A stretch of 32,000 nucleotides of DNA from Telmatocola sphagniphila (lineage in GTDB: Bacteria; Planctomycetota; Planctomycetia; Gemmatales; Gemmataceae). The first letter of the stretch is position 1. Each line of letters starts with the position of its first letter. The notes below the pieces were generated by a model that ran no database searches, was not told the DNA's origin, and worked only from the letters and a program-made list of their open reading frames with translations. A program made the translations under genes and the position numbers. Shown here piece by piece: positions 6,080 through 24,426 of the stretch. The stretch covers positions 3,690,001-3,722,000 of the forward strand of contig NZ_CP074694.1 in the NCBI RefSeq assembly GCF_018398935.1. The letters run 5' to 3'.

Positions 6080-7370
6080 CAGGGAAATCGCGCTTAAATT
6101 CCAAGAAAACATCTAATGTCATTAATTGTATTGCGCATCGTTCTTCTTTAGTGGAGGATGTGGAAATCGCTCGCTAGATCGCCCTGGGGTTCCTCGATGT
6201 TTCAGCTTTCCGAACTATCTCCCGCGCCGGCGAAAACTCCGTTGACCGATCTCCTCGTCCACTTCGCGGATTTGCCCGACCACCGCCTCGATCGTTGCCA
6301 ACAACACACGCTTTCGGAAATCATTTTCATAGCCATTTGCGCCGCGGTTTCCGGAGCCAACGACTGGGTGGCCGTCGAAGCTTTCGGCGTGACCAAGATC
6401 GACTGGTTCCGGAAGTATCTCCCTTGCCCAACGGCATCCCGAGCCATGACACTTTCGGCCGAGTTTTCCGCTATCTGGACACGGATGCTTTCGAGGCCTG
6501 CTTCGCTTCATGGATGGCGGAAATCTGCGTCGGGACCGACCTGCTTCAGGTGGCGATCGACGGCAAGACGATGCGTTCGTCAGGCGGTCCGGGTCAGAAG
6601 TGCCTGCACGTGGTCAGCGCGTTTGCGACGGCCAACCGCGTGACGCTGGGCCAAGAGGCGGTGGACGATAAATCGAACGAGATCACCGCGATCCCGGAAT
6701 TGCTGAAACGGCTGGACATTGCCGGAAAAATCGTGACTATCGACGCGATGGGCTGTCAAAAAAAAATCGCCGAGGCGGTGCGGGAACGGGACGCGGATTA
6801 CCTGTTGGCGGTGAAGGACAATCAACCGACTCTCTTGGCCGAGATCAAGGCTCATTACTTCAAGCATTTGGAGTCCGGATTCGCCGATGTACCGACGACG
6901 TTCTGCGAATCGACGGAGAAGAATCGAGGCCGAGTGGAGTACCGTTCGTGCCTCGTGTTTTCGGACGTCAATTTCTTATCGATGAAGGACGATTGGAAAG
7001 GCTTGAAGACGGTGGTCGTGGTGGTGACCGACCGCCGAGAAAACCACAAGAGCGCGAGCGAAATCCGCTACTATATTTGCAGCCGAGCGTCGGACGCTCC
7101 GGTGTTGGCGAAAGCGGTCCGGGAACATTGGACGATCGAGAATAATTTGCATTGGTCCTTGGATGTGACATTCGGCGACGACGACAGCCGGGTTCGAAAA
7201 GATAACGGCCCTCAGAATTTCGCCAGGATTAAAAGGTTGGCTCTGAGCATAGTAGCGAATGCGAGCGGCAAGGAATCGATGGCAGTCAAACGACTGAAAG
7301 CCTGCGCCAGCGATGAACGCCGAGAATTAATTATTCGAGAATTCCTTCAGCTTTAAATGCGATTTCCCTG
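6080..7370 (+). mobile_element. ISAs1-family insertion sequence (1291 bp) with terminal inverted repeats and TSD
   Basis: IRL cagggaaatcgcgcttaaa (6080-) versus the reverse complement of the right end, cagggaaatcgcatttaaa (-7370): 12 perfect bases, 17/19 overall. Flanked by the direct repeat gcccatttgg. Encodes an ISAs1-type transposase whose stop codon lies inside IRR. Confidence 0.85.
6197..7356 (+). pseudogene. ISAs1-family (H-repeat-associated type) DDE transposase interrupted by a 1-nt frameshift
   Basis: The N-terminal part (MFQLSELSP...DHRLDRCQQHTLSEIIFIAICAAVSGANDWVAVEAFGVTKIDWFRKYL) is in frame 2 up to 6421. The rest (LPNGIPSHDTFGRVFRYLD...AIDGKT...AIDAMGCQK...YLLAVKDNQPTL...HWTIENNLHWSLDVTFGDD) is in frame 1 from 6424. 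Only 2 nt (cc, 6422-6423, within a c-run) separate the two, which implies one missing base. Confidence 0.75.
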
Positions 7371-8019: not shown

Positions 8020-11000
8020 TTAGTGTGCCATGCTGCCCGAACCCTGCGGCGGTTCGCGATGCCCGTAGAAGCTGTAAAGCACCGGCATCAGATACTGCGT
8101 TAAGAGCAGTGAAGTGATCATCCCTCCCACAACTACGATCGCGAGTGGGCGCTGAGTTTGCACGCCGATCGGTTCAATGAAGCGGAAGTGCCCGGTGTGA
8201 TCCCAGGCCGGTCGAAGTGCCAAGGCCGCCGGGAGCAACCCGAGAATGGCGGTCATGGCCGTCATAACGACCGGGCGAAGACGTTTTTCTGCCCCTTCCA
8301 GAATGGCTTCCCGCAAAGGAACTCCGTGAGCCCGTAAAGCATTGAAGTAAGAGACCATCAGAAGACCGCCCATGATCGCCACGCCAAACAGCGACACAAA
8401 CCCCACGGCGGCGGAAGTGCTGAAGTTCGTTTCGGTCAGGATCAAAGCCCAGATGCCACCGACAGTAAGAGCTACCACGTTCGATAGCACCACAATCGCA
8501 TCCAAGAGGGAATTGAATGCCATGTAAAGCAGCACGAAAATCATCAGGAGAGCCATCGGGATAATTAACATCAGACGCGCTTCGGCGTCTTGCATCTGCT
8601 CAAACTCACCGCTCCATTCCGTGCGGTAAGGTGCGTTAATGAGATCGGCAGTCTTGGCCTTCGCTTCCTCCACGGCACCTGCCAGGTCGCGATTTCGCAC
8701 GCTGAATTTAACTGCAATCATGCGTTTGCCCTGCTCCCGGAAGATCATTGAGGCCCCGGGACGTACGAAGCTACCGTCTTTCCCCTGCTCGCCGTTGGAA
8801 TCCACAAAAGGTGTCACCAGTTTACCAAGTGGAACTCGTGGCGTATTTCCGAAATAATTCGTGGTGCCGTTGAACTGGCTGCCCGTCAAGGCGGGCCCAA
8901 GATTCTGCGTGCCGTTGGGTGCTAGACCTACGGATTGGCCAATCCCCCGATTAGAGCCGATCTGAGGCTGCCAGCCGCTGAAAACCTGATTGTTGATGAC
9001 ATCGACGGGAATGTTCAGGATCGAATGAACGTTATCTCGAAGCGGTTTGGGGAATCGAAGGCTGATGTCGAATCGCTTTTCCCCTTCGATCATCGTCGAG
9101 AATGCCTGACCCCCAACGGCAGTTTGCACCACGTTTTGCAGATCGGCGACGCTGACTCCCCATTGCTGGCACTTTACGGGATCCCAGGGGATTTCCAGGT
9201 TGGGCTGTCCCATGACGTTCATCGTGCCGACGTCTTCGATACCCTGAATATCTCGGAGTCTCTTCTCGACCTGCGCGGCCAATTTTTCGAGTTCTTCCAG
9301 ATCGGGGCCGAAAATTTTGACAGAATTATCACCTTTAACTCCCGAGATCGATTCCATCACGTTGTCGCGAATGTTCTGCGAAAAGTTCCAGTCGACCCCA
9401 GGTGTGGCTTTACGTAGATCCGACGTCATTTCTTCGATCAATTCGGTCTTGGTTCTGGGTCGCGTACCGTTGAAGTGGGACATCCAACCCTCGGTTTGCT
9501 TGACGGCAGGCCATTCACCGCGCGGCTTCAAGGGAACGAAAAATTCCGACTTATAGAAACCTTCGGGGTCGGTACCGTCGTCCGGGCGCCCCATTTGATT
9601 GGCTATGGCATCGATTTCCGGATATTTCATCATCACTTTGCGCGCTTCTCGCGAGCCATTGGCAACCGTATCGAGGGTAGCATTTCGAGGGAACATACCG
9701 CGTACCCAGAGATTCCCCTCTTCCAGTTCCGGCATGAATTCGCGACCCAAATGATCCTTGGCATAAACGATTGTGAAGGCCAGAAAGGCCAGCATGCCCA
9801 AGATGAAGAACCAGCGCAGGGCCAGCATATAGTCGAGAATGTGAAGGTAGACGGCCTTCATGGTACGGACCAGAAAGTTGTCCCGGGCTTCTTTGATATG
9901 ACCGAGAAATAACCGGCAGAGGACGGGAGTCAAGATGGTGGCCAGCATAAGCCCTCCCGCCAGAGCAAATGCGTAAGTATCGGCCATTGGCCCGAAGAGT
10001 TGCCCCTCGGCCCCCTTCATGGCAAAAAGAGGGATAAAGGCCACGACCATAATCAGAGTCGAAAACAGCAGTGGACGCGTGATTTCACCGCTGGACTGTT
10101 TGATTCGCTCTTTTAGTGTTAATTCGGAGTGTTCATTGGAAGTGAGTTTACGGAAGATGTTTTCCGCCATGATCACTGAGGAGTCCACGATAATTCCGAA
10201 GTCGACTGCCCCGATAGACAGAAGATTTGCTGACTTGCCCCGAGCATAGAGCATCGAGAAGGCAAACAGCAATGCCAATGGAATATTGATCGCCACAATC
10301 AGAGCTACGCGAACATTTCCGAGGAACATCAACAGAATCACGGCGACCAGACTGATTCCAACGACAAGATTTTCCTGTACGGTCTCGGTGGTGATTTCGA
10401 TGAGTTCTGTTCGGTCGTAGTAAGGTTCCAGTTTGACCCCGGGCAGAGTCGTCCCGGTTTTGGGATCATTCAATTCCGCAACTTTATCTTTCACGGCTTT
10501 CAGAGCGGGCAAAGAGTCTTCGCCTTTCCGGAGTAGTACGATGCACTGAACTTTTTCGTCTTCATCCTGCCAGACGACCGAACCGTCTTCACGAGTGATG
10601 TCGAGTTTGTTCGCATCTTTCTTCGGCGTACTGAGACTCACTTTACCCAGTCTGGTCTGATTACTGACCACTACCCCTTTCTGGCCGATTTCAATGCTGT
10701 TCAGCAGAGGACCGCCTTCGACCAGATCTTCGACCCGAATCGGCACGTTGTTGTAGGTGGTTACCACAGTTCCGCGGATTGATCGAATACGCCGTTCGTC
10801 TTCGGATCGGAGAATCTTCGCGGCCTTGAGCGGATCAGCCGCGATCACACTTTTGGACTGCATCGGATCGGACCCGCCCCCATAGAGACCCACGTTACGA
10901 ACGTTGATGGCATTCGCCCCTTGCAGCAGCACATCGCCGCCGCTGTTCATATTGGCGTTAGCGATAGCATTCTGAATCTGCGAGAGGGTCACGCCGTAGC

Positions 11001-11601
11001 GTCGCATCCGATCGGGATCGGGAAGAATCTCATAACGTTTGACGGTGCCACCGGCACTGGTCACGTCGATAATTCGCGGCACCCGCCGAAATTCTCGTTC
11101 CAGTGCCCAGTCTTGAAGAGCTTTCAAATCATTCAAGGTGTAGACATCCCGGCCACCTTCTTTGGGGCAGCTCAAGGTGTAGCGGTAAATTTCGCCCGTG
11201 GGGCTGGTGGGAGAAATGACTGCGTTGACGCCGTTGGGTAGCGGTTGAGAAATGTTCGCCAGACGATTGAGAACTTCCTGTCGAGCTTTGGTGTACTCCA
11301 TGCCATATTCGAATTGCAGACGCAGGTGAGCCAGACCGAACAGCGAACGGGTTCGGGTATATTTCAGATCGGGCATCCCAGCGAGGGTGATTTCCAGTGG
11401 AATGGTCACCTGCCGTTCGACTTCTTCCGCACTTGCACCCGGATACTGCGAAATCACCTCGACGATCGAAGGAGAAGGATCCGGGTACGCTTCGACATTG
11501 ACGTTCTTGAACGAATATGCGCCAAAACCGATCAATACCGCAGTCAGGAGCAGCACTACGAGTGTATTTTCGAGAGCCCAACCGATGAGACGCTGAAGCA
11601 T
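8020..11601 (-). CDS. Heavy-metal-efflux RND inner-membrane pump (CzcA/CusA family), unusually long (1193 aa)
   Basis: N-terminus ...VNVEAYPDPSPSIVEVISQYPGASAEEVERQVTIPLE is the CzcA/CusA hallmark. TM4 proton-relay motif AVDFGIIVDSSVIMAENIF. 12-TM RND layout with two large periplasmic loops. Confidence 0.9.
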   Translation of the reverse strand: MLQRLIGWALENTLVVLLLTAVLIGFGAYSFKNVNVEAYPDPSPSIVEVISQYPGASAEEVERQVTIPLEITLAGMPDLKYTRTRSLFGLAHLRLQFEYGMEYTKARQEVLNRLANISQPLPNGVNAVISPTSPTGEIYRYTLSCPKEGGRDVYTLNDLKALQDWALEREFRRVPRIIDVTSAGGTVKRYEILPDPDRMRRYGVTLSQIQNAIANANMNSGGDVLLQGANAINVRNVGLYGGGSDPMQSKSVIAADPLKAAKILRSEDERRIRSIRGTVVTTYNNVPIRVEDLVEGGPLLNSIEIGQKGVVVSNQTRLGKVSLSTPKKDANKLDITREDGSVVWQDEDEKVQCIVLLRKGEDSLPALKAVKDKVAELNDPKTGTTLPGVKLEPYYDRTELIEITTETVQENLVVGISLVAVILLMFLGNVRVALIVAINIPLALLFAFSMLYARGKSANLLSIGAVDFGIIVDSSVIMAENIFRKLTSNEHSELTLKERIKQSSGEITRPLLFSTLIMVVAFIPLFAMKGAEGQLFGPMADTYAFALAGGLMLATILTPVLCRLFLGHIKEARDNFLVRTMKAVYLHILDYMLALRWFFILGMLAFLAFTIVYAKDHLGREFMPELEEGNLWVRGMFPRNATLDTVANGSREARKVMMKYPEIDAIANQMGRPDDGTDPEGFYKSEFFVPLKPRGEWPAVKQTEGWMSHFNGTRPRTKTELIEEMTSDLRKATPGVDWNFSQNIRDNVMESISGVKGDNSVKIFGPDLEELEKLAAQVEKRLRDIQGIEDVGTMNVMGQPNLEIPWDPVKCQQWGVSVADLQNVVQTAVGGQAFSTMIEGEKRFDISLRFPKPLRDNVHSILNIPVDVINNQVFSGWQPQIGSNRGIGQSVGLAPNGTQNLGPALTGSQFNGTTNYFGNTPRVPLGKLVTPFVDSNGEQGKDGSFVRPGASMIFREQGKRMIAVKFSVRNRDLAGAVEEAKAKTADLINAPYRTEWSGEFEQMQDAEARLMLIIPMALLMIFVLLYMAFNSLLDAIVVLSNVVALTVGGIWALILTETNFSTSAAVGFVSLFGVAIMGGLLMVSYFNALRAHGVPLREAILEGAEKRLRPVVMTAMTAILGLLPAALALRPAWDHTGHFRFIEPIGVQTQRPLAIVVVGGMITSLLLTQYLMPVLYSFYGHREPPQGSGSMAH

Positions 11602-11703
11602 GAGATTCTCTAGGATGCGGGACGATATTCGAAAGGGAACCGAGTTCCCAGCCCCACATATGAAGGGCTGGCGATAACGATTATGCGATTCCCAGCGGGT
11701 TAA

Positions 11704-13260
11704 TTATTTCTTGTCGCTTTGCGATTGCAGGTTCTGCAACTCTCCAGCGAGTTCCAGGGCTCCCCGCTGAACGACGATTTCGCCCGGTTTGATTGCTTCC
11801 GCGCCGTTCTTCTGATCTTTGGTCGAAGGAACCTTCCGCAGAAAAATCTTTTCGCGACCGCGAACGGCCACTGACACGATTCGACGAGTGAATTCATTGT
11901 CAGCTCCCGTTTTTACGAACACGACGGGACCATCATTATCCTCGACTATCGCTTCGGTAGGTACTGCAACCAGATCGGGATCGGGTAGCAGGTTGATTGC
12001 AGCCGAAACCGCTTCGCCCACGAAATGGTTGCCCTTCAAATTATCGACCCAGCCGGTGATGGTACCGGTGTGCTGAGCGGGATCGATCACAGACCCCAGT
12101 TTATCGAAGGCGCCGACTTCCTCGCCAGCGGCGGGATTAGCCTGGAAGGTGATTCGCCAGCTGCGGTGCTTGGCGGCAATTTCTTTTTCCATTTCCACAC
12201 CCGGGCTATTGTTGGTCGGGTAGGTTTCGTCCCAACGCGAGATTCGCTCCAACTGTTGAATTTTGAAAAGATCTTCTTCATAGGCGTGAACCAGCACTTG
12301 CAGCCGATCCAGTTTAGCGATTTTAAAAAGATCCACCGTCGGATCGACGATATCGCCGATCGTCACATTCTTCTCGACAATTTTTCCATCGAAAGGGGCT
12401 CGAATAGCGACTTCCGCCCAGCTTCGTTCGACTTCGAGATCCGCCACGCCTTTGCTATCCGGCAGTTTTATCACGGGGGCTTTATCGCCTTTGAGCCGTT
12501 CGACTTCCTTGTTCAGAAAATCCATTCTCTCGGCTTCCCGCTTCACGGCGGCAATCTCTTCCTCGGTCAACTGCCAGGAACGCAGTGTGCGTTCCGCCCG
12601 CCCCACGGCAATCACATCCTGCATGAAGGAGCGAATGGCCGTGGTTAATTGATTCAGGGACACAATGCCCGTTTCAACCGACAGATATCGCTCCAGAACT
12701 CGCTTGTCGGCCATCATTTGCGAAGTTTGATCGACCAGTTCGCTTTTCTTTTCGCCGATATCCTTGCAGAACACGACGGCCAGGATCTGACCCTTTTTCA
12801 CGTAATCGCCGGGACGCAAGCCATTCTCCGGAACTATAGAAAGCCGTTCGGAGGTACTGGAGCTGTCGCCTTTCAGACCGATTTTGGTGATTTGACCCGC
12901 AAACAGGCTGTGAACTCGAGCTAATCGATTCGGATCGAGAATCGTGGTGCCCGGGAGTTTCAGCGCTTCGGGAGCGGGGGAATCTTCCACCTTGGCCAGG
13001 GTGAATCTTGGGCTAGTGAGCAGTTCCTTATCGAGAATGATGGCATCCTTGATAACTTTGCCTTCTTTATCTCGAGCCAGCTCAACCAGCGATTTTGGTT
13101 CTTCGTGCTTTTCCGCGGTTACGGTTTTCGGCTTCAATGATTCGTATTTTTCAGTGAGCCACGACCAGTTGAAACAAACCGCTACCACCAGGGCCACGAA
13201 AATCGCCGGCTTTAGACCCCGTTTGAGCCAAGTTCCAATAGAACGCTTGTTCTCAGCCAT
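11704..13260 (-). CDS. RND efflux periplasmic adaptor (membrane fusion protein, CzcB/HlyD-like)
   Basis: 518-aa ORF. N-terminal membrane anchor (PAIFVALVVAVCF). Lipoyl/barrel-sandwich-like segments (GDYVKKGQILAVV, IRAPFDGKIVEKNVTIGDIV), a coiled-coil hairpin region, and position directly upstream of the RND gene. Confidence 0.85.
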   Translation of the reverse strand: MAENKRSIGTWLKRGLKPAIFVALVVAVCFNWSWLTEKYESLKPKTVTAEKHEEPKSLVELARDKEGKVIKDAIILDKELLTSPRFTLAKVEDSPAPEALKLPGTTILDPNRLARVHSLFAGQITKIGLKGDSSSTSERLSIVPENGLRPGDYVKKGQILAVVFCKDIGEKKSELVDQTSQMMADKRVLERYLSVETGIVSLNQLTTAIRSFMQDVIAVGRAERTLRSWQLTEEEIAAVKREAERMDFLNKEVERLKGDKAPVIKLPDSKGVADLEVERSWAEVAIRAPFDGKIVEKNVTIGDIVDPTVDLFKIAKLDRLQVLVHAYEEDLFKIQQLERISRWDETYPTNNSPGVEMEKEIAAKHRSWRITFQANPAAGEEVGAFDKLGSVIDPAQHTGTITGWVDNLKGNHFVGEAVSAAINLLPDPDLVAVPTEAIVEDNDGPVVFVKTGADNEFTRRIVSVAVRGREKIFLRKVPSTKDQKNGAEAIKPGEIVVQRGALELAGELQNLQSQSDKK

Positions 13261-13602
13261 TAAAAAACCTTAATCAGAATTTTCTGCAGTTGGTATTCAC
13301 TGCACTGCAATTTATGCGCCTAACTCCTGGAGCTGGTCGCTAGCAATCCATGGTAACCAAATCACTTACGTTTCTTGGGTATTATCTGTTCGATTGAAAT
13401 TGAATCTGAGCGAAAACACGCCAGGAGTGGTCGACTGGAAACCACAGAGGTCGGCAGACGACCTCAGCAATTGTGAAGATTTGCTATCGATTTGGGCAGA
13501 CAACTAAAAAAATAGGTATTAAGCCGGAAGTCAGAATAGAGGCTCTGTTCTTCATTCGCGAACAGATCCTCAAATATTTTTTTTTGTGACGTAAACTCGG
13601 CT

Positions 13603-15108
13603 TTAAGGAAACTTCTCCATCTGCATTAAGCCTGAAAGCTGGGCAGCGTTTGTCCAAAGATTCTGCAGGGCATCAATGTAGTCGCTATTAGCCTGAATGG
13701 CCGTTCGTTGAATCTGCAGATAAGTGGCGAAGTCAAAGATACCGTTATCCAGGCCGGCTTTTATCAGACGGGCCGCCTCTTTAGAGTCTGCCAGAATACC
13801 CTTTTCGAAGCTATCCACCGTCTCCTTGGCCGCCAGATACTGGCTCAGGAGATTCTCAGCCTGGTTAACCAACGTCAGACGAATTGAATCGATATTCTCG
13901 ATGGACGAGGAGACGTTTGCCCGAGCGGCCCGAATATTCCCCTGGTTGCGATCCCATACTGGAATCGTAAAGCTCAGATTCAACCAGAACTGATCGGTAT
14001 TTTGTTGACCGGGCACCAGGCCAAACTGGTAGGCTGGCCCAATGGTGGGATTCGGGTATGGATCGATCTCCGCTCGGCGTTGCAGTAAACGATTTTGCTG
14101 TACGACCGACTGGGCCGCCTTGATCTGAGTGTGCTCCTGAGTGACGAATAGCAGCACCGCTTTTTCATCGAATACAGGATAAGGCCCCGTGACATTTCCG
14201 ATCAGCGTGCCAGTCACACAACCGGGCACACCGACAAGAGATTCGAGTTGCTTGCGATCGCCATCGAGAATGGCTTCCGCATTTTTCAGCTTCGCTCGCG
14301 TGGTATCGTAATCGACTTTCAAAGCCAGAACATCGTAGGTCGCTTTATCCCCCGCCTTCTTGATCTTCTCCACGGTCTCGTACGATTTCTTAACGATTTC
14401 CACGATCTCTTTCAGAACTTCGATGCGCTTCTGATCGATCAGCACCTGATAATACTGCTGCCGGACTTGAGCGAGCAGGGACAGCCGATTTTGCTTATAG
14501 GTCAATTCCGCCTGTCGAGTCGCTTCGTTGGCCGCGGCCTGATCGAGCCGCTTCTTACCCATCACGGGAATTTCCTGGGTGAAACCGGCGTTCAACGTGG
14601 TATTGCGGCCGTTATAGGTGAACGGATTATTGGCGTTGAATTGCGGATTGGGCATCACACCGGCCTGAATTGCCGATCCTTTGGAAGAGTCGATGGCCGC
14701 CCGGTCCCGCTTCATGATCGGGTTCATCTGATCGGCCAGATTTTCGAAATACTCGAGCGTCAGAGGTTGATTGCTTTTTGAAGCATCGACCAAACTCTTC
14801 ACTTCCGTCTGCAGGAAGCTGGTTTGCCGGATATCGCTCGCCGCCGGAAGCTGAGTTTTCATGCCGATAGGTTGCTCGACCAGCACGGCGGCGGGTTTTG
14901 CACCCGAGCTGGCAACCACTGGGGCAGTGGTGGTTCCGGCCACCGAAGGGGGTACTTGTGCAGAAGCGGACGAGAGAGCCGGCTTCAAGGATGTGGTGGC
15001 CGTCGGGATCTCCGGAGCGGAGGTGTTGGCTCGCGGCACTTGTGCGCATCCCACGCCGATGGCACCTGCTGAGGCGGCCAGCAATCCTTTTCGAATCAGG
15101 CTGTACAT
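13603..15108 (-). CDS. TolC/NodT-family outer-membrane efflux lipoprotein (CzcC-like)
   Basis: 501-aa ORF. Lipoprotein-type signal ending AIGVGC, an A/S/T/P-rich linker, then two OEP-type repeats (e.g. LTLEYFENLA..., AELTYKQNRLSLLAQVRQQYYQVL, ...YLQIQRTAIQANSDYIDALQNLW). Confidence 0.85.
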   Translation of the reverse strand: MYSLIRKGLLAASAGAIGVGCAQVPRANTSAPEIPTATTSLKPALSSASAQVPPSVAGTTTAPVVASSGAKPAAVLVEQPIGMKTQLPAASDIRQTSFLQTEVKSLVDASKSNQPLTLEYFENLADQMNPIMKRDRAAIDSSKGSAIQAGVMPNPQFNANNPFTYNGRNTTLNAGFTQEIPVMGKKRLDQAAANEATRQAELTYKQNRLSLLAQVRQQYYQVLIDQKRIEVLKEIVEIVKKSYETVEKIKKAGDKATYDVLALKVDYDTTRAKLKNAEAILDGDRKQLESLVGVPGCVTGTLIGNVTGPYPVFDEKAVLLFVTQEHTQIKAAQSVVQQNRLLQRRAEIDPYPNPTIGPAYQFGLVPGQQNTDQFWLNLSFTIPVWDRNQGNIRAARANVSSSIENIDSIRLTLVNQAENLLSQYLAAKETVDSFEKGILADSKEAARLIKAGLDNGIFDFATYLQIQRTAIQANSDYIDALQNLWTNAAQLSGLMQMEKFP

Positions 15109-16904: not shown

Positions 16905-18188
16905 TTAGTCGACCGCTTTGACTTTCGCATCCTTCAGCGTGAAAACGTAGTCTTCGGGATCATTTTTATTAAGTACCAGTTTGCCCACCACTTGCACCGG
17001 CCCGCGCTGCAATGTGGTCGCCTTGCCGGCCGCTAATTCAACTTGGATTAACCCGGTCGGCTCCGGACTTTCACAGAACCAGCACCCTATCGGAAATTCC
17101 AGAAGCAGGAAATTATTGATTTCCACGGCCTCGGCGGTGCTGAACTCAAAACCGGTGATCGTCACCGTCGTCCCGTCTAATTTTTCAAGATAGGGAAGAT
17201 ACTGAATTTTGAAAGGCTTTTGGATGGTCGTCTCTCCCAAGGCCGGCCAAGGCAGGAGATTGATGGCTCCTTTTTTAATCTCCGGTAAGTTCGCCGGATT
17301 GATTCGGCGCACGAGAGGACGAGCACTCAGGAACTTGATATCGGACCGGAATTTCGCATGTTCCGAATCGGGTAATTTAGCGATCTCGTCGGCGGCTTCC
17401 TTGTAGATACGCCGCCGTTCGCGGATATCCCCCTGCCCCATGCCAAACTCGCTGACGCAACCTTCTATGATGCTGGCCGCGGTTCGCACATCGCCGTGCG
17501 CGTTCGCTAACTCGGCCATTTGCCAGAGAAGTGGGCCATCCGAAGGGAGCCAGAGAGCAAGCTGTTCGATCAGGGCGACGTCGTTGGCGGGTAGTTTCTT
17601 CTTTTGTTCCGGGTCGATTTGTCCCGCCGTGGGACGATTTAAGCTACCGGTAAAGTCTATGCCGAAAAAGTTATCTCGAGGGGTCGCTTTCGCTTTTCGC
17701 AGCCGGATCAGTTTCAGATGGGTCGCTTCATAAGGTTTCCATTTCTCCGGAGCCAGGCGAACGGATTCCTCCAATTGCTTCTCGGCCTGATTCAAATCCC
17801 CGGTTAATTGCCACGCCGTACCCAGATTCGCTGCGATGGCGAAGTTTTTAGGATGCTGTCGAGCGGCCTCCCGCAACCAATCCAGAGCCTCGGTCAATCG
17901 ATTGAGTCGGATCAGTACCGCACCCAGATCGGCCGCTTCCTCGGCGGAGAGACTGCGAGACTTGGCTAGTTCCCTCAACTGTTTTGCGGCGGCTTCGTAT
18001 TGTTCCCGCTGAAGAGTCGCAGGGAATTTATCTGTGGGGGTGATGCCGATGGTCCGCAGCGCCCGATGGTCGAGCAGGAACCCCCGAAAATTGGCGGGAA
18101 GATCAGCATAGATCTCTTTGGAATAGTAGACGCCGGCCTGACAGTAGGCGGGAAGTAGAAGCAGGACAAGTAGAGGAATATAGCGCAT
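16905..18188 (-). CDS. Secreted TPR-repeat protein with C-terminal DUF3299-like domain
   Basis: Start moved to the ATG at 18188 (MRYIPLLVLLLLPAYCQA signal peptide); the 51-aa upstream extension is arginine-rich and implausible. TPR-like helices (AIAANLGTAWQLTGDLNQAEKQLEESVRLAP). C-terminus LDGTTVTITGFEF...NNFLLLEFPIGCWFCESPEP...IQVEL resembles DUF3299. Confidence 0.7.
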   Translation of the reverse strand: MRYIPLLVLLLLPAYCQAGVYYSKEIYADLPANFRGFLLDHRALRTIGITPTDKFPATLQREQYEAAAKQLRELAKSRSLSAEEAADLGAVLIRLNRLTEALDWLREAARQHPKNFAIAANLGTAWQLTGDLNQAEKQLEESVRLAPEKWKPYEATHLKLIRLRKAKATPRDNFFGIDFTGSLNRPTAGQIDPEQKKKLPANDVALIEQLALWLPSDGPLLWQMAELANAHGDVRTAASIIEGCVSEFGMGQGDIRERRRIYKEAADEIAKLPDSEHAKFRSDIKFLSARPLVRRINPANLPEIKKGAINLLPWPALGETTIQKPFKIQYLPYLEKLDGTTVTITGFEFSTAEAVEINNFLLLEFPIGCWFCESPEPTGLIQVELAAGKATTLQRGPVQVVGKLVLNKNDPEDYVFTLKDAKVKAVD

Positions 18189-18410
18189 TTTGAAGCTTCC
18201 GGTGAAATTCGGCCTCCCGGTCGATCGGGCAATTAAGGCAAGTCGAAAACGTCCTTTCGATAGCCTACCGGGCGAAAATTCGGCTCGAACAAGCTTTTTT
18301 CTTTTTCGACACCTCGAAATTCCTATCGACATCTTACGCAAGTTCGGCTATGCGACGCTCCAACGGTGGGGGAGCCGTACCTATTTGGTCCCACACTGGG
18401 GGGGGAAATC

Positions 18411-19772
18411 ATGATCGTTCAAGCCGGGAATATTCCCATGCTGAAAAATGCTTTTCGCGCGGCGCTGGCACTCACGCTGGGCCTGGGGGCGACGCAGGTT
18501 CACGCACAAAACATCGTTGGCGGCGGTGCTTCGGGGATGCCCACGATGAGTGTCCCGGCCAGCAACATCCAAGGAATGTCCGGATCCTCCGGCGTCAGTG
18601 GCCTCAGTTCTCCTCCAAATCCGTTTAGCAGCCCGTCGAGCGGCAGCTCGTCTATTACCAGCGGCAGCACCGATACAAGCCGCATTTATGCCGGCTTCGA
18701 ATACCTGCTGTGGGATATTCCCAATCGTTCTGTCCGAATTCCCGTGGGGACAGTCGGAGATACCAATTCTCTCGGCGTCCTCAACCAACCCGCCACATCC
18801 TTGCTCGGGGGAAACAGTACCAATTACGGGAACTGGACTCCCGGAATGAAGCTCAACTTCGGAGTCTGGTACGACGACAACCATAGCTACGGATCCAACC
18901 TCAGCTTCCTCTGGATGTTCAGCCAGAAGTCTACGTACATGGCCCAGTCCGACGGAAACGGTAATCCTGTAATCTCACGACCATTCTTTGATACTCTATT
19001 CGCAACCGAGGATGTTCGACTGCTCTCCTTCCCCGGCGCCAACACCGGCGGTTACCTCACTCAATCGACGGTACGGATGTGGGGTGCAGAAGTGAATCCG
19101 CTGATTTGCAGTATCTTCGGCGATTCCACTTTCAATTTGAGTTTCTTGACCGGTTTCAAATATCTGTATTTCAATGAAACCTACAACATTCGGGATTCAT
19201 CGAATGCAATTGGTCCAGGCAGTATCTTCTACCTCGGCAACGCCTTCGGTGCCGGGTACGGCACCAGTGTTCTCGATCACGTAGTGGCGGCCAATCACTT
19301 CTACGGATGGAATCTCGGCTTGCAGTTCCACGGGGAATTGAGCAACTTCCTGTTCGATGTGGCGGGTAAGGTCGCCATCGGTGCGAACGAAGAAGTTGTC
19401 GATATTTACGGAGCCACGACGCTCTTGAGAAACAATGTCTACGTTCAAGGAACGCCGGGCGGTTTGCTTGCTCAGCCGAGCAATAGCGGCTCGTTCGACA
19501 AATTTAACTTTGCAGTCATGCCCGAATTGAATGCCTCGATTGGTTACCGGATTATCCCGGGGGTCGAGATCCATTTGACGTATTCCTTGATGTACGTCAG
19601 CAGTTTTGTCCGGGCACCGGATCAACTCCTGGCACGTCAGATTAATTCCGGCATCGTGCCCAGCAGTCCCAATTACGGCGTCGGCGGCAGCGGCCCGGCT
19701 CCCGTGACTTACCTCGATCGATCCGACTTCACGGCTCAATCGATCGGAATCAACTTAACTCTGTCTTATTAA
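18411..19772 (+). CDS. Putative outer-membrane beta-barrel protein (BBP7/DUF1551-like)
   Basis: Signal peptide ...AFRAALALTLGLGATQVHAQ (start at 18411, or the ATG at 18438). S/G/P-rich linker. IYAGFEYLLWDIP motif typical of the planctomycete BBP7-type barrels. C-terminal beta-signal SIGINLTLSY. Confidence 0.6.
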   Translation: MIVQAGNIPMLKNAFRAALALTLGLGATQVHAQNIVGGGASGMPTMSVPASNIQGMSGSSGVSGLSSPPNPFSSPSSGSSSITSGSTDTSRIYAGFEYLLWDIPNRSVRIPVGTVGDTNSLGVLNQPATSLLGGNSTNYGNWTPGMKLNFGVWYDDNHSYGSNLSFLWMFSQKSTYMAQSDGNGNPVISRPFFDTLFATEDVRLLSFPGANTGGYLTQSTVRMWGAEVNPLICSIFGDSTFNLSFLTGFKYLYFNETYNIRDSSNAIGPGSIFYLGNAFGAGYGTSVLDHVVAANHFYGWNLGLQFHGELSNFLFDVAGKVAIGANEEVVDIYGATTLLRNNVYVQGTPGGLLAQPSNSGSFDKFNFAVMPELNASIGYRIIPGVEIHLTYSLMYVSSFVRAPDQLLARQINSGIVPSSPNYGVGGSGPAPVTYLDRSDFTAQSIGINLTLSY

Positions 19773-19843: not shown

Positions 19844-19927
19844 CTGTAAGATTTCCTGTATGGGACTGAATTCTCGATAGATTATTAGAGAGCCGAATTG
19901 CGCCAGTTTCACCCAACTGAGGTTACT

Positions 19928-20470
19928 ATGAAGCATCTTCTCAGCCTGTTCCTCTTTAGCGGGTTAGCCTCTATAACTCTAGCCGGCGAGCCGCATCTGA
20001 AGGTCAGTGCGACCTTCGAGCCTGCGGACGCCAAGCCGGGCCAGGTAGTCACCCTGAAAATCAAGGCCGAGATGGATCCCGAATGGCATACCTACCCAAC
20101 TGTACAGCAGGATAAGGCCGCCAAGGATCAAGTGAATAAAGTGTTGTTCGATCCCAATGGCCCCTTGGTATTCGTGGATAAGATGATCGAACCAGCCAAT
20201 CCCACCATTAAAGAAGAACCCGACTTGGGAATCAAAGCCATGCACTACTATCCGGGTGGAGGCGTCTGGGAAAAAAAGGTGGTCATTTCTCCTAATGCTC
20301 CAGCGGGCAAACTGACGACCAAGTTCACGTTCACCGTACTGACCTGCGACAAGAATAATTGCCTTCCGCCGAAAAAAGTTCCTCTGGAAGTCAGCTTGAA
20401 TGTCTCCGGCGCACCCGTGCCGGTCGATCCCAAGTACAAAGAGGATGTAGCTAAGGCCCTCAAAAAGTAA
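19928..20470 (+). CDS. Secreted DsbD-alpha-like (DsbD N-terminal domain) thiol-disulfide protein
   Basis: Start at MKHLLSLFLFSGLASITLA (signal peptide). GQVVTLKIKAEMDPEWHTYPT and the C-terminal FTFTVLTCDKNNCLPPKKVPLEV match the immunoglobulin-like DsbD alpha domain, with its paired Cys and C.PP motif. Confidence 0.7.
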   Translation: MKHLLSLFLFSGLASITLAGEPHLKVSATFEPADAKPGQVVTLKIKAEMDPEWHTYPTVQQDKAAKDQVNKVLFDPNGPLVFVDKMIEPANPTIKEEPDLGIKAMHYYPGGGVWEKKVVISPNAPAGKLTTKFTFTVLTCDKNNCLPPKKVPLEVSLNVSGAPVPVDPKYKEDVAKALKK

Positions 20471-20501
20471 CCAGTATCCCATCGACAGCATCTAAGATCT
20501 T

Positions 20502-20535
20502 AGACGGGTATCATGCACAAGCCTGATACCCGTCT
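20502..20535 (+). terminator. Intercistronic stem-loop (possible attenuator or processing site)
   Basis: 12-bp perfect stem agacgggtatca / tgatacccgtct with a 10-nt loop, followed by cttgtt (weak T-tract). Lies between the alpha gene and the beta-gamma gene. Confidence 0.35.
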
Positions 20536-20577
20536 CTTGTTAATACCTTCGCTGTTCCACATACTCTCTGGCGAATC

Positions 20578-22134
20578 ATGACTTCAAAACTCCATCCGCT
20601 GGTGCTGATTGCCGCCCTGCTCACTTTGGCTGCTCTCCCTCAGTTAGCCAGCGCGCAGGACATGGCCCTGGCAGAAATTGGCTTCAAACTCCCGGCCACC
20701 CGGGATCTGAAACCGGATCTGGATGTCATCGCCGAAAATATTGTGAAAGAGGAATCGAACACGGCTACTTTCGCCGCTTTCGTACTCGCGGCCGCCGCGT
20801 TTGGCATAATCACGCTCCTGACACCTTGCGTGTTCCCGATGATTCCCATCACCGTGAGCTTCTTTTTGAAGCAGGGAGAGAAGAAAAAAGCGAATCCGCT
20901 GGCACTCGCCACAGTCTATACGGCCACGATCGTGATCGTGCTCGGTGTGGCCGCCGTGACCTTGATCAAGGAGTTTCGCGACCTGGCCGTGAATCCCTGG
21001 GTGAACGTGGCTCTGGCGTTTCTCTTTGTCTTCTTCGCCATGAGCCTGTTCGGGATGTTCGATATTGTGCTGCCGAGCTTTCTGGTGCGGGCTACATCGT
21101 CCCAAGAAGGTCGTGGCGGTTACCTCGGCACCATTTTCATGGCGCTTTCGTTTACAATCGTCAGTTTCACTTGCGTCGCCCCGTTTATGGGAGGCTTTGC
21201 CGGTCTGGCTGCCTCGGGTAAGATGAGCCGGCTGCAACTTTATAGCGGCGGATTGGTATTCGCCGCCACCTTCGCGGCCCCATTTTTCCTTTTGGCGCTA
21301 TTTCCGAGTCTGCTCAAGAAACTGCCCAAGAGCGGTTCCTGGATGAATACTGTGAAGGTATTCATGGGCTTCTTGGAAATGGCGGCGGCCCTCAAATTCC
21401 TTCGCACAGCGGAAATTCGCTGGTATAGCCCACCTGTGCTTTTCACCTACGATTTTGTGCTCGGTATCTGGATCGCCCTTTTATTGCTGGCCGGGCTCTA
21501 TCTTTTGGCGATGTATCGGCTCCCTCATGACGAACCGATGGAGCACATCGGCGTTTTTCGGCTATTTTTCGCCATTGCGGCGTTCTCCCTGGCGGCCTAT
21601 CTTTTTCCCGCTTTATTCCCGGGCAAAAACGGTGAGAAAAATCGCCCGGCCGGAATCGTGTTCGCCTGGGTGGATGCGTTTCTACTGCCGGAGTCGGAAG
21701 AAACCAGCTCTACCGGCCTCATCATTTCGTCCGACTTGAAACGAACGCTCGAAGAAGCCCGTCGTAAGAACAAGCTGGTCTTCCTCGATTTCACAGGTGT
21801 CACCTGCACGAACTGCCGGCTCAACGAGAAAAACGTTTTCCCGAAACCGGCGGTGGCCGATTTGATGAAGAAGTATCTGAACGTGCAGATGTATACCGAT
21901 ACGGTTCCAGCGAATCTTTACGAAGGCACGGCCTCCGACGAGAAGCGGGAGAAAGATGCCGAGGCGATTCTGGAATTTCAACAGAAGGTGCTGAATACGA
22001 TTCAGTTGCCAACCTACGCGATTTTGAAGCCGGTTGAGGGGGGAAAGTATCAACTGGTGGGCACCTACGAGGAAGGCAAGATCAACAATGTAGAGGCTTT
22101 CGTTAACTTCCTCAAGAAACCTCTCGAAAAATAG
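20578..22134 (+). CDS. DsbD-like thiol:disulfide electron transporter: CcdA/DsbD-beta membrane core fused to a C-terminal thioredoxin-like (gamma) domain
   Basis: 518-aa ORF. Signal peptide. Conserved membrane Cys motifs LTPCVFPMIPITVSFF and SFTCVAPFMGGF. Multiple TM helices. C-terminal LVFLDFTGVTCTNCRLNE (CxxC thioredoxin-like site). Confidence 0.85.
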   Translation: MTSKLHPLVLIAALLTLAALPQLASAQDMALAEIGFKLPATRDLKPDLDVIAENIVKEESNTATFAAFVLAAAAFGIITLLTPCVFPMIPITVSFFLKQGEKKKANPLALATVYTATIVIVLGVAAVTLIKEFRDLAVNPWVNVALAFLFVFFAMSLFGMFDIVLPSFLVRATSSQEGRGGYLGTIFMALSFTIVSFTCVAPFMGGFAGLAASGKMSRLQLYSGGLVFAATFAAPFFLLALFPSLLKKLPKSGSWMNTVKVFMGFLEMAAALKFLRTAEIRWYSPPVLFTYDFVLGIWIALLLLAGLYLLAMYRLPHDEPMEHIGVFRLFFAIAAFSLAAYLFPALFPGKNGEKNRPAGIVFAWVDAFLLPESEETSSTGLIISSDLKRTLEEARRKNKLVFLDFTGVTCTNCRLNEKNVFPKPAVADLMKKYLNVQMYTDTVPANLYEGTASDEKREKDAEAILEFQQKVLNTIQLPTYAILKPVEGGKYQLVGTYEEGKINNVEAFVNFLKKPLEK

Positions 22135-22179
22135 GCTGGAATTGACCCGAGATCGAAATTAAGGTATGATTTAATAAGC

Positions 22180-22635
22180 ATGTTGCGAAGTCTCTTCTGC
22201 GTCTGGTTTACCATTTTCAGCCTTTTCGGGCCGGTGCTCTGCTGTTGTATTTTGAAGCCACTGGCCGCTGCTGAACCGTTGAATTTCAGTTCTGAAGCGA
22301 CGCCGGAAGCGGAGCCAGTCGATGAATGCCCTTTCTGCAAGGCCGAAAAAGCCAAGACGACCCATCCTGCTAAACCGCAGCCCTCTCCGCCCAAAGAAAG
22401 TCCGATTAAGTGCCCCTGCCAGGGACAGATCACTCAGGTGGATCTGAACATTCCGCCCGCAAATACCTCGGCGGAACTGAGCTGGAATCTCAGTCAATGG
22501 GATGGGGTTTGGGTTTATCTCGTTCAAAATCCGACAACTGAAAATCTAACTCCCCTTGATTTCGCATTCGAGCGGCCCCCCTGGCCGATGGCTCTTCGCG
22601 ATTCACTCGCTTTGCTGCAGATCTTACGCTGTTAA
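22180..22635 (+). CDS. Hypothetical signal-anchored protein with CPFC and CPC motifs
   Basis: 151-aa ORF on the same strand, 45 bp after the DsbD-like gene. Hydrophobic N-terminus (FCVWFTIFSLFGPVLCCCIL), then DECPFCKAEK and IKCPCQGQ. No family recognised; SD is weak. Confidence 0.45.
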   Translation: MLRSLFCVWFTIFSLFGPVLCCCILKPLAAAEPLNFSSEATPEAEPVDECPFCKAEKAKTTHPAKPQPSPPKESPIKCPCQGQITQVDLNIPPANTSAELSWNLSQWDGVWVYLVQNPTTENLTPLDFAFERPPWPMALRDSLALLQILRC

Positions 22636-22728
22636 CGGACAGTAGATTCTCAAATTGGATCTTTAACCTCGTCGTTCAGGAGCTAGGCTTCCTGACACCA
22701 AGATTTGTTCGACACTATTTCAAGTGAG

Positions 22729-23037
22729 ATGAATTCCATGATTACGAAACTAATCGCGGCCTCGGCCGCTCTGATGATGGGTATTACCCTGGGTTTCAGC
22801 GGTGCGAGTTCCAGCAACCGAAATTGCTGCACCGAGGGTGCGGCCTGTTGCTTCGAAGGTTCGCCTTGCTGCGAATCGTATGGAAACTGCTGCTATGAAG
22901 GTGCGGCCTGTTGCCTTGAAGGTTTGCCTTGCTGCGAGTCGGTGAAAGCTACTTCGGCGACGAGCAAATCCTGCTGTGGCGCAGGCTCGGCTTGCTGCGA
23001 AGTGGGCGCTGATTGCTGCACCGAAAGCAGCAAGTAA
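22729..23037 (+). CDS. Secreted cysteine-doublet repeat protein (nine CC pairs, CC-x5 heptad register)
   Basis: The ORF track gives 22705..23037 (TTG start); the ATG at 22729 or 22738 precedes a signal-like segment ITKLIAASAALMMGITLGFSGASS. Mature part: CCTEGAACCFEGSPCCESYGNCCYEGAACCLEGLPCCES-(linker)-SCCGAGSACCEVGADCCTESSK. A 63-nt tandem duplication at 22825-22887 / 22888-22950 preserves the frame. Confidence 0.6.
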   Translation: MNSMITKLIAASAALMMGITLGFSGASSSNRNCCTEGAACCFEGSPCCESYGNCCYEGAACCLEGLPCCESVKATSATSKSCCGAGSACCEVGADCCTESSK

Positions 23038-23094
23038 GAATGCGAAAGGGGTGGGTTTGAAAACCCACCCCCCATCATCACATTAAAAAAAGAG

Positions 23095-23120
23095 GGCCCT
23101 GCCGAAGCAGGGCCTTTTCG
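23095..23120. terminator. Bidirectional rho-independent terminator
   Basis: Stem ggccctgc / gcagggcc with loop cgaa, an A-run upstream (aaaaaaaga) and ttttcgttt downstream. Lies between convergent gene ends 23037 (+) and 23152 (-). A second hairpin ggggtgggttt / aaacccacccc is at 23048-23071. Confidence 0.7.
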
Positions 23121-23151
23121 TTTAAGTTTATTTTCTCGCTCTGATTAGCAC

Positions 23152-24426
23152 TTAGCCCACCAGTTCCTTGATCGGCAACACATCGGCTTCCTTGTCGGCG
23201 GCCAGATAGGTAGGACGACCCAGGTTGTCGCGGATCTGAGCCTTGGGATCAAGACCCAGTGCGGCATAGATCGTCGCATAAAGATTGTTGATCTTAACCG
23301 GGTTGTCTTTGACCATTTCGCCGCCGGCATCGGTCGAGCCGACCACTTGGCCGCCCTTGATGTTACCACCAGCGACAACCACCGACCAAGCTCGAGGATA
23401 GTGGTCGCGGCCACCGTTCTGATTGATGCGAGGAGTTCGGCCGAAGTCGCCCATCCACACTACAACCGTGTCTTTCAAGCGGCCCGACTTTTCGAGGTCT
23501 TCAATCAAAGATCCCATGGCTTTATCGAGCGTCGGCAAAGCCCGAGTAGCGAGAGCATTGAAGATACCGGCGTGCATGTCCCAACCACCCAGTGACACTT
23601 CGACGGCGACAGCTCCGGCTTCGGTTAATTTCTTGGCCAGCAAGCAGCCTTTGCCGAAGTTGTTATTACCGTAGCGGGTAATGTCGGACTGATTGTTCAG
23701 AGCAAAGAGATCCTTCTTGCTGCTGACCACCAGATTCATGGCCTTGCCGTAAACTTCCTGGTGGGACTTCGAAGCGTCCTTATCCAGGTGGGTGCTGTGC
23801 TGGAAACCCGCTTCCAGCTTGTTGAACATGCTTTCGCGGGTTTTCATGCGGTCGGCCGTCACATCCGAAGGAGTCTTGATATTTTCGGGAGGAAGACCGG
23901 GGTTTTGTACGTTGAACGGAGCATAGCGCATCCCGAGGAAGCCGGGGCCGCGTGATCCGCCGCCGGCCGAGATGAAGGAAGGCAGATCGGTTTCATTTTC
24001 GCGATTGAGGTAGCTCAGAACCGAACCGATCGAGGGGAAGTCGACCAGCGGATTCGGGGAGCGGCCGGTGTTCATGAGGGTGGTGCCCCGCATGTGATCG
24101 CCTTCGGTCGTCGTCAGGCTGCGGATGATGGCCATGTTCTTCATCTGCTTGGCCACGGTCGGCAGGTGTTCGGAAATTTGGATGCCGCCTACCGAGGTGC
24201 TGATTGGCTTGTGTTCGCCGCCGTTGGCGTGACCGGGTTTCATATCCCAGAGGTCGATCGTGGAAGGTCCGCCGCCCATCCACAGGATGATCAGGCTCTT
24301 CTGTTTCTTTTTCAATTCCTTGCTTTGTGCGTGAATCGAATTCAAGAAAGCCAATCCCGGAAGGGACATGGCCGACATCCCTGCCATGTGACTCATAAAA
24401 TGCCGACGATTCTGGGTACCGAACAT
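23152..24426 (-). CDS. DUF1501 domain protein (sulfatase-fold, Tat-exported)
   Basis: 424-aa ORF. Twin-arginine signal QNRRHFMSHMAGMSAMSLPGLAFL. LIILWMGGGPSTIDLWDMKP and GRDHYPRAWSVVVAGGNIKGGQVVG are the DUF1501 hallmarks. Confidence 0.9.
   Translation of the reverse strand: MFGTQNRRHFMSHMAGMSAMSLPGLAFLNSIHAQSKELKKKQKSLIILWMGGGPSTIDLWDMKPGHANGGEHKPISTSVGGIQISEHLPTVAKQMKNMAIIRSLTTTEGDHMRGTTLMNTGRSPNPLVDFPSIGSVLSYLNRENETDLPSFISAGGGSRGPGFLGMRYAPFNVQNPGLPPENIKTPSDVTADRMKTRESMFNKLEAGFQHSTHLDKDASKSHQEVYGKAMNLVVSSKKDLFALNNQSDITRYGNNNFGKGCLLAKKLTEAGAVAVEVSLGGWDMHAGIFNALATRALPTLDKAMGSLIEDLEKSGRLKDTVVVWMGDFGRTPRINQNGGRDHYPRAWSVVVAGGNIKGGQVVGSTDAGGEMVKDNPVKINNLYATIYAALGLDPKAQIRDNLGRPTYLAADKEADVLPIKELVG

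Follow-up and report, generated by a model that had tools for sequence, protein, structure and literature searches.

What is the role of a small exported protein whose cysteines all occur in adjacent pairs? The question is raised by a gene of Telmatocola sphagniphila (Planctomycetota; Gemmataceae) on the plus strand of a 32,000-nucleotide stretch of contig NZ_CP074694.1 (positions 3,690,001 to 3,722,000), which we call the window and whose numbering is used throughout. Our comparative analysis indicates that this gene, referred to here as the CC gene after its Cys-Cys doublets, is a member of a large, unnamed family that is homologous to no described family and appears to do a known kind of job with a new architecture. 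We consider its product, the CC protein, most likely to be a new kind of periplasmic metal sponge or chaperone. Stated more fully, we put at roughly 60% the probability that it is an exported, metallothionein-like binder of soft metals, probably copper, made from a two-gene cassette whose members are translationally coupled. An earlier note on this DNA had suggested a periplasmic thiolate-rich metal-binding or redox protein, and this suggestion gains comparative support from purifying selection, an export signal, the lack of a known relative, fusions to HMA domains and metal-related neighbours.

The CC gene spans 22738..23037 (+), with a likely ATG at 22738, a TAA stop at 23035-23037 and a product of 99 residues. 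The earlier note had begun the gene at an ATG at 22729, which would give 102 residues; the open reading frame (ORF) 22729..23037 (+) and its translation are borne out, but the likely start moves to 22738 (MITKL...), because the family-wide start consensus is M-x-TKL, with Met4 almost invariant. Translation of the longer frame confirms the nine CC doublets that had been described, with 18 cysteines, all paired, at residues 33, 40, 47, 54, 61, 68, 82, 89 and 96. The gap between the doublets at 68 and 82 is filled by a 12-residue linker rich in Ser, Thr and Lys, ESVKATSATSKS (22936..22971, +), which was also noted earlier and proves to be exactly two degenerate heptads long; residues 75-76 are a degenerate 'TS' at a lattice position, and all nine doublets thus share one seven-residue lattice. 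Shuffling the mature sequence 200,000 times never produced nine doublets (the maximum was eight), which excludes a chance origin of the pattern. The mature region contains no histidine, and every cysteine in it belongs to a doublet. An intrinsic-terminator-like hairpin of 12 bp (7 G-C) followed by a T run is predicted at 23091..23118 (+) and would end the transcription unit. Exact look-ups of the 102- and 99-residue versions matched no record, and an Rfam scan of 22000-23300 gave nothing significant. The window protein ends in Lys (codon 23032-23034), as do 94 of 158 family members with it included.

The same 158 members define the repeating unit. Of all their cysteines, 94.6% lie in doublets; the doublet-to-doublet spacing is seven in 825 intervals, with the runner-up spacing found in 70, and the doublets are grouped in threes (298 runs) or sixes (32 runs). 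This makes the unit a 16-residue module with six cysteines, CC-[YFA]-[PE]-G-[SA]-x-CC-[FY]-[PE]-G-S-P-CC, or in short form CC-x2-G-x2-CC-x2-G-x-P-CC, and modules are connected by variable linkers. The window protein has three of these: CCTEGAACCFEGSPCC (22825..22872, +), CCYEGAACCLEGLPCC (22888..22935, +) and CCGAGSACCEVGADCC (22972..23019, +), the last followed by the tail TESSK. Its register seems unbroken because modules 1 and 2 happen to be joined by a linker of exactly heptad length; the seven-residue register proposed earlier therefore stands, but the repeat is the three-doublet module and not the single heptad. Modules 1 and 2 reflect an in-frame 63-nt direct duplication (22820..22941, +). 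At the coordinates first assigned to it 47 of 63 positions are identical, identity reaches 85% over 59 nt (22820-22878 against 22883-22941), and our own count of about 92% over the central ~39 nt agrees with the ~90% once given for the core. Tandem Repeats Finder called no array in 22600-23150, and the duplication was visible only to a seed-based repeat search. In 142 proteins, the similarity of modules at their non-Cys positions was 0.47 within proteins against 0.365 between proteins, so internal duplication has been recurrent in the family. Growth of the array by unit duplication, as first proposed, is thus backed both by the 63-nt repeat and by the resemblance of modules within proteins.

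A full HMMER scan of 1.8 billion cluster representatives (clustered at 50% identity) returned 74 proteins at E ≤ 1e-3, and a profile built from 30 homologues gave 428 matches in a set of 5.8 billion proteins. Scanning one genome per species with a 15-sequence alignment as query found 80 loci that carry the gene, labelled L001 and so on. The family extends over Planctomycetota, Myxococcota, Bacteroidota and Acidobacteriota; the loci are mostly from Gemmataceae, Isosphaeraceae and Pirellulales, with others from Polyangiales and other Myxococcota, from Bacteroidota and from one member of Blastocatellia. Two of the 80 are from isolates, Limnoglobus roseus PX52 (NZ_CP042425.1, near 4.975 Mb) and Gemmata sp. 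IIL30, and profile matches place a further member in Fimbriiglobus ruber. The CC protein has no match in Pfam at E ≤ 0.01 or in NCBIfam at E ≤ 1; its homologues likewise have no model in either collection and are called hypothetical in their sources. A lack of homologues that keep the doublets and the reading frame had been named among the outcomes that would speak against the idea; more than 400 homologues were found, and about 95% of cysteines lie in doublets in the members counted. In related locus pairs the ratio of non-synonymous to synonymous substitution rates (dN/dS) is 0.10-0.71, with a median of about 0.27, and lies below 1 in 44 of 44 pairs, while Cys codons show 99 synonymous against 25 non-synonymous changes. 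These patterns indicate that the ORF is a real gene in a family under purifying selection.

The choice of frame needs some care, since the variability of codon positions cannot separate the plus frame from the antisense frame of the same phase, the wobble positions of which coincide; stop counts, HMA fusions and signal peptides were used instead. On the opposite strand TGCTGC becomes GCAGCA, so that antisense frames are frequently open, and the -1 antisense frame is open in 48 of 57 genes. The antisense frame at 22893..23081, raised earlier as possibly the conserved one, has a stop within the Cys-rich region of the window gene, and only 13 of 57 homologous genes leave it open. The strongest evidence for the frame, judged from the homologues, is that the Cys-doublet frame runs in-frame into a bona fide HMA domain in many of them.

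The N-terminal segment MITKLIAASAALMMGITLGFSGA (22738..22806, +) is visible in the sequence as a Sec-type signal peptide or an N-in signal anchor, and in either case the Cys-rich part would lie beyond the cytoplasm; cleavage after SGA is possible. The feature is general: of 145 members, 143 carry near the N-terminus an uncharged hydrophobic stretch of 12 residues or more (median 20). It is preceded by an n-region with a net charge of about +1 and followed by a small-x-small motif, and a twin-arginine motif is absent. AlphaFold2, run on an alignment of 46 sequences, predicts no fold for the CC protein, with a mean predicted local distance difference test score (pLDDT) of 54.9. The lack of a predicted fold would be expected of a metallothionein-like protein in its metal-free state.

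The link to metals comes from fusions and from gene neighbourhoods. Among the best 120 homologues, 34 (~28%) carry a C-terminal in-frame HMA domain, which Pfam confirms in protein P0004 (E 8e-10) and in the L013 protein (E 1e-15), and some sources name these fused proteins CopZ or cation transporter. The family sits in copper and heavy-metal resistance gene clusters. Recurrent neighbours in the 80 loci are lipoprotein-like TRASH/YHS proteins with His-rich stretches, a small TRASH-like protein, and CusB-like fusion proteins with resistance-nodulation-division (RND) pumps. In L002 the homologue has a TRASH protein on one side and, on the other, a protein with runs rich in His and Met; downstream of the CC gene, L004 and L013 encode a CusB-like fusion protein and an RND pump, and L017 encodes a fusion protein. 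Multicopper oxidases are found nearby in L017 (Gemmata sp. IIL30) and L051 (Bacteroidota), the latter also with an HMBD protein. A dense metal island is found in L013 (3925-16137, from a Fimbriiglobus metagenome-assembled genome), where the genes encode, in this order, a TRASH-like protein, a leader-like Cys protein, a TRASH/His lipoprotein, the CC-HMA protein, a His-rich YtkA-like protein, a Csp1-family copper store (E 8e-10), a duplicated CusB-like fusion protein and an RND pump. In the window itself, family models identify a heavy-metal RND efflux operon (8020-15108, -), encoding an outer-membrane factor, a CusB-like fusion protein and a pump of the CusA/CzcA family; the pump passes TIGR00914 with 750.6 bits (cutoff 701.45). 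Copper is the most likely metal of the family.

The second member of the proposed cassette is the gene immediately upstream, at 22180..22635 (+), which encodes a 151-residue exported or membrane-anchored protein with a transmembrane helix ending in LCCC, a CPFC and a CPC motif, and a C-terminal LLQILRC directly followed by the stop codon. A sigma-70-like promoter match, TTGACC-17-TATGAT (22142..22170, +), lies just upstream of it and is a consensus match only. This partner directly precedes the CC gene, in the same orientation, in about 30 planctomycetal loci (L001, L005, L008, L009, L014-L016, L018-L020, L024-L026, L028, L031, L032, L036, L037, L039, L040, L043, L047-L050, L052, L057, L068, L078 and L082), and in larger islands it is the first gene of the operon. 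A copy 99% identical to that of the window occurs on two short contigs that end before the CC gene. Partner proteins of about 120-165 residues share an N-terminal helix ending in LCCC or GWCC, an internal CxxC or CCC with a CPC, and an extreme C-terminus of HHVLRC or HCVWLC with the stop directly after it. In their alignments the cysteines at the end of the transmembrane helix are invariant (C21 in alignment A4; C22 and C23 in A5), as is C80, while C53 and the C-terminal Cys are invariant or nearly so. The distance from CPC to the C-terminus is constrained to 57-73 residues; that from the helix to CPC is variable (36-69). AlphaFold2 gives the partner a pLDDT of 49.4, with only the N-terminal helix confident. 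Pfam and NCBIfam hold no family for it, and DUF2946 (PF11162) was matched at E ≤ 1 by none of 26 partner proteins; one related partner subtype gave a DUF2946 match of only E 0.56.

The messenger RNA suggests how the two genes may be tied together. A long-range helix is predicted at 22600..22735 (+). One of its arms comes from the final ~12 codons of the partner (22600-22615), the other from the region of the Shine-Dalgarno-like sequence and start of the CC gene (22722-22735), and inner hairpins form between the two; by thermodynamic prediction the minimum free energy is -42.9 kcal/mol and z is -2.57. Across 31 loci the intergenic stretch folds better than its shuffles (mean z -1.74). Between the ribosome-binding window and the 3' end of the partner 7.6 nt are paired, compared with 3.7 nt in controls (Wilcoxon p 5e-5), and at least 7 nt are paired in this way in 22 of 30 loci. 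We take translational coupling of partner and CC gene to be supported by this pattern of pairing across loci, which, as a modelled one, suggests such coupling. The partner may also sense metal or stall in a metal-dependent manner, by analogy with the leader proteins CruR and CutF discussed below.

Shorter family members occur in other arrangements. In Bacteroidota they are one-module peptides of 47-75 residues, and in five loci an exported Cys-motif protein other than the planctomycetal partner, about 115 residues long, is encoded ahead of them (L029 7595-7945; L051 7599-7967; L064 3718-4056; L070 7607-7954; L072 7603-7962). This protein has the motifs CC...NNCC...CNPF...C.CC, ends in (C/F)(F/W)HPPE, with two residues and the stop after it in L029, L064 and L070, and gives only sub-threshold matches to DUF6660; its HPPE ending recalls the RAPP-xxx-stop arrest motif of CruR. 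In nine loci of Myxococcota (L053 7998-9299; L063, L065, L071, L073, L075, L077, L080 and L083) a one-module peptide with a His/Arg-rich tail is followed by an extracytoplasmic function (ECF) sigma factor, by a four-helix membrane protein of about 190 residues with the motifs LLPMSLLRPCC...CC..P..C, or by both, and the sigma factor and membrane protein could form a metal-sensing sigma/anti-sigma unit.

From these data we propose a model for the activity of the cassette. The CC protein would be exported by its Sec-type N-terminus, leaving a mature part that consists of three six-cysteine modules (CC-x5-CC-x5-CC) and does not fold by itself. In each module the reduced thiolates would wrap soft metal ions, likeliest Cu(I), as metal-thiolate clusters, and the protein would buffer the metal or pass it to other export and detoxification proteins. 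Pairing of the 3' coding end of the partner with the ribosome-binding region of the CC gene would make translation of the partner necessary to open the CC gene, and the partner protein may additionally sense metal, as CruR and CutF do. In the window, a DsbD-type thiol reductase encoded upstream could maintain the 18 thiols in reduced form under the oxidising conditions of the periplasm. Metal binding, the identity of the metal, the cluster chemistry, the coupling, the sensing and the role of DsbD are all steps that we infer. A more specific joint version, which we advance only tentatively, would make the family an exported metallothionein class with one polynuclear Cu(I)-thiolate cluster per module (for example Cu4S6) that feeds an HMA domain or RND pump or buffers copper, and would at the same time have its synthesis gated by a new metal-sensing leader unrelated to DUF2946, acting through its C-terminal HHVLRC or HCVWLC motif, or in Bacteroidota through HPPE close to the stop, together with an mRNA helix by which the downstream start site is masked.

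Several points weigh against the metal-binding model. The literature yielded no description of the family and no biochemical, transcript or proteomic record for any member. The window protein has no HMA domain (PF00403) in a Pfam scan, and the HMA, TRASH and HMBD domains of its relatives and their neighbours are not copper-specific. The methionine triad of Escherichia coli CusA (M573/M623/M672) is replaced by R/K/E in the window pump, by G/S/H in L013 and by N/V/H in L004; the pumps therefore do not settle the identity of the metal, and together with the unspecific domains this leaves Zn, Cd, Hg or Ag as possible ligands. The low AlphaFold confidence may merely mirror a repetitive family that is hard to align, and the RNA pairing is a thermodynamic prediction that lacks covariation support. 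In an oxidising periplasm the doublets could be disulfide-bonded, and the DsbD reductase neighbours the CC gene in only two of about 80 loci; in L005 a DsbD homologue lies within 4 kb.

That reductase is also the ground for the best-placed alternative, a periplasmic redox protein whose 18 thiols are cycled by the adjacent DsbD and which serves as a reductant or disulfide buffer towards Cu(II), oxidants or other thiol proteins. The redox side of the original suggestion does find an echo here, in that the CC gene follows a split DsbD-type periplasmic thiol reductase (19898..22134, +), made up of a DsbD-N-like part (19898-20470) and a part with the DsbD transmembrane and thioredoxin domains (20578-22134). 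Pfam identifies DsbD_TM at 91.4 bits (cutoff 27.1) and Thioredoxin_7 at 31.7 bits (cutoff 27), with DsbD_N at E 4e-4, below its cutoff, and the NCBIfam DsbD model gives E 1.7e-34; the pair thus has the transmembrane and thioredoxin-like domains of a DsbD, with a weak N-terminal part. Both parts correspond to one fused 704-residue protein in L005 (1964-4078), and the window DsbD was also found on a Logan contig from SRR14506984. The order on the plus strand is BBP7 porin (18366-19772), DsbD-N-like protein, DsbD transmembrane/thioredoxin protein, partner and CC gene, with gaps of 45-125 nt; no terminator is predicted in 22134-22180, the single one being that after the CC gene. However, a linkage confined to two loci is a local feature and not a rule of the family, whose recurrent neighbours and fusion partner are metal-binding and export proteins, and vicinal Cys-Cys disulfides are strained and judged poor general redox couples. 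DsbD as a general partner of CC genes was rejected on the same count, and we regard a redox protein as unlikely.

Slightly less probable, in our estimate, is a signalling or sensing peptide for metal stress at the envelope, which would bind metal and inform a regulator with no bulk sequestration. This would fit the nine myxobacterial loci, in which the one-module form with its His/Arg tail is closely followed by an ECF sigma factor, a Cys-motif membrane protein or both, and bufferin operons are likewise controlled by SigF/NrsF (PMC11626156). The window protein, however, is built of three modules, with no sigma factor encoded nearby, the forms with several modules or an HMA fusion resemble capacity or chaperone proteins, and first place in an ECF operon may just mark a regulated effector.

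An improbable third alternative is a precursor akin to the ribosomally synthesized and post-translationally modified peptides (RiPPs), with cysteines that are enzymatically converted or crosslinked as in the bufferins. A Sec signal on a small Cys-rich protein in a copper context is indeed bufferin-like (PMC11626156), and a core motif in several copies is a typical trait of certain RiPP precursors. Against this, no modifying enzyme (MNIO/DUF692, DUF2063, radical SAM or other) is a conserved neighbour in the 80 loci or lies near the window gene, where the lone radical SAM gene is HemN-like (2245-3585) and 19 kb from the CC gene; an in-frame fusion to a folded HMA domain would also be atypical of a RiPP core. 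The idea of a precursor for crosslinking, offered earlier as the other option, accordingly finds no support.

We see very little room for a secreted disulfide-knotted peptide of structural or bioactive function (a toxin, an antimicrobial or an adhesin-like protein) with no metal role. The protein is small, secreted and Cys-rich, and a PDB profile search gave borderline matches to Cys-rich toxins and to complement C5/C5a anaphylatoxin; at E 0.03-0.05, though, all of its matches are at chance level, AlphaFold predicts no fold, the contexts are metal-related and not those of toxin and immunity genes, and HMA fusions speak against it. Finally, a chance ORF in GC-rich repeat DNA, or a real gene in an antisense frame, is refuted as far as sequence analysis reaches, since the frequent openness of antisense frames noted above is outweighed by the stop in the window's antisense Gln-Gln frame, the signal peptide, the selection on every pair compared, the terminator after the stop and the continuation of the plus frame into HMA.

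Two further genes of the window frame the region. A DDE transposase gene (DDE_Tnp_1; 6295-7356, +) lies just past the end of the RND operon and hints that part of the region is mobile, and a TPR protein with a weak C-terminal match to DUF3299 (16905-18341, -) is encoded between the RND operon and the string of porin, DsbD and CC genes. The families BBP7 and DUF1501, together with the best homologues, assign the window to Planctomycetota.

Periplasmic copper handling is at present explained by Met/His chaperones such as CusF and PcoE, by HMA proteins, by Csp1 and, recently, by bufferins. If our reading is true, an unmodified, exported, metallothionein-like family with more than 400 members in at least four phyla would be a new and chemically distinct player among them. 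Its very regular six-thiolate module would be a compact natural metal-binding unit that can be tested and engineered. The conserved partner suggests, moreover, that control of metal genes by leader proteins, so far associated with DUF2946, has independent versions in Planctomycetota and Bacteroidota.

A comparison of the CC family with known systems highlights both the familiarity of its proposed role and the distance of its sequence. CusF, PcoE/SilE and CopK are small periplasmic binders of Cu(I) or Ag(I), the role proposed here for the CC protein, and are encoded with RND efflux genes, as the CC-HMA genes upstream of such genes in L004 and L013 are; they use Met, His and Trp ligands, however, and are unrelated to the CC family, and the pumps near CC genes differ from CusA in the methionine triad. 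The HMA metallochaperones CopZ and MerP are represented by the recurrent C-terminal fusion partner of CC modules, and the fused proteins are predicted to be exported, as MerP is, but the modules themselves are unrelated to the ferredoxin-like HMA fold with its GMxCxxC motif. Csp1 (TIGR04401) is an exported, thiolate-rich protein of copper handling, as the CC protein is proposed to be, and it shares the L013 island with a CC-HMA gene. Csp1 folds into a four-helix bundle whose cysteines follow CxxxC-type spacing, and in methanotrophs it carries a Tat signal, whereas disorder is predicted for the CC family and its signal is of the Sec type.

Bufferins (BufA; DUF2282, BUF_6/12Cys) have been shown experimentally to bind excess copper in the periplasm, and their cysteines are converted to 5-thiooxazoles by an MNIO (DUF692, BufB) with a DUF2063 protein (BufC) encoded alongside (PMC11626156). 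They share with the CC family a Sec signal on a small Cys-containing protein and, in some lineages, an association with ECF sigma factors; the sequences are unrelated, and there is no DUF692 or DUF2063 gene among the scanned window proteins and no recurrent enzyme family in the 80 loci. Nor does the CC protein resemble the precursors of SCIFF peptides and ranthipeptides, which are cytoplasmic, have six cysteines in 45 residues and are encoded beside a radical SAM maturase, since it matches none of their NCBIfam models, has a signal peptide and has no adjacent radical SAM gene.

For the partner, the relevant systems are CruR (Bordetella Bp2923; PMC9426467) and CutF (Rhodobacter; bioRxiv 10.1101/2025.02.05.636593), exported DUF2946 leaders that sense copper through a Cys motif and control downstream expression through a C-terminal arrest motif and mRNA structure. 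The partner resembles them in its length class (120-160 residues), export, first place in a metal-related operon, Cys motifs, conserved extreme C-terminal motif and conserved spacing from Cys motif to C-terminus, and its predicted mRNA structure likewise takes in the downstream ribosome-binding site. The C-terminal motifs differ, being RAPP or PPP at a spacing of about 45 in CruR and CutF and HHVLRC or HCVWLC at 57-73 in the partner, which does not match DUF2946.

Metallothioneins (SmtA/BmtA, MymT and the eukaryotic proteins) show no sequence similarity to the CC family, and the CC protein gives no match to a metallothionein family model in Pfam; those known from bacteria are cytoplasmic and use CxC and CxxC motifs with histidine, whereas the CC family appears to be exported by a signal peptide and uses CC doublets at seven-residue spacing, with a mature region in the window protein that is free of histidine. 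Like the CC family, however, metallothioneins are small, about one-quarter cysteine, almost devoid of an aromatic or hydrophobic core and without a fold in the absence of metal, and they too hold their cysteines in short fixed motifs that include CC pairs, within modules that have grown by internal duplication.

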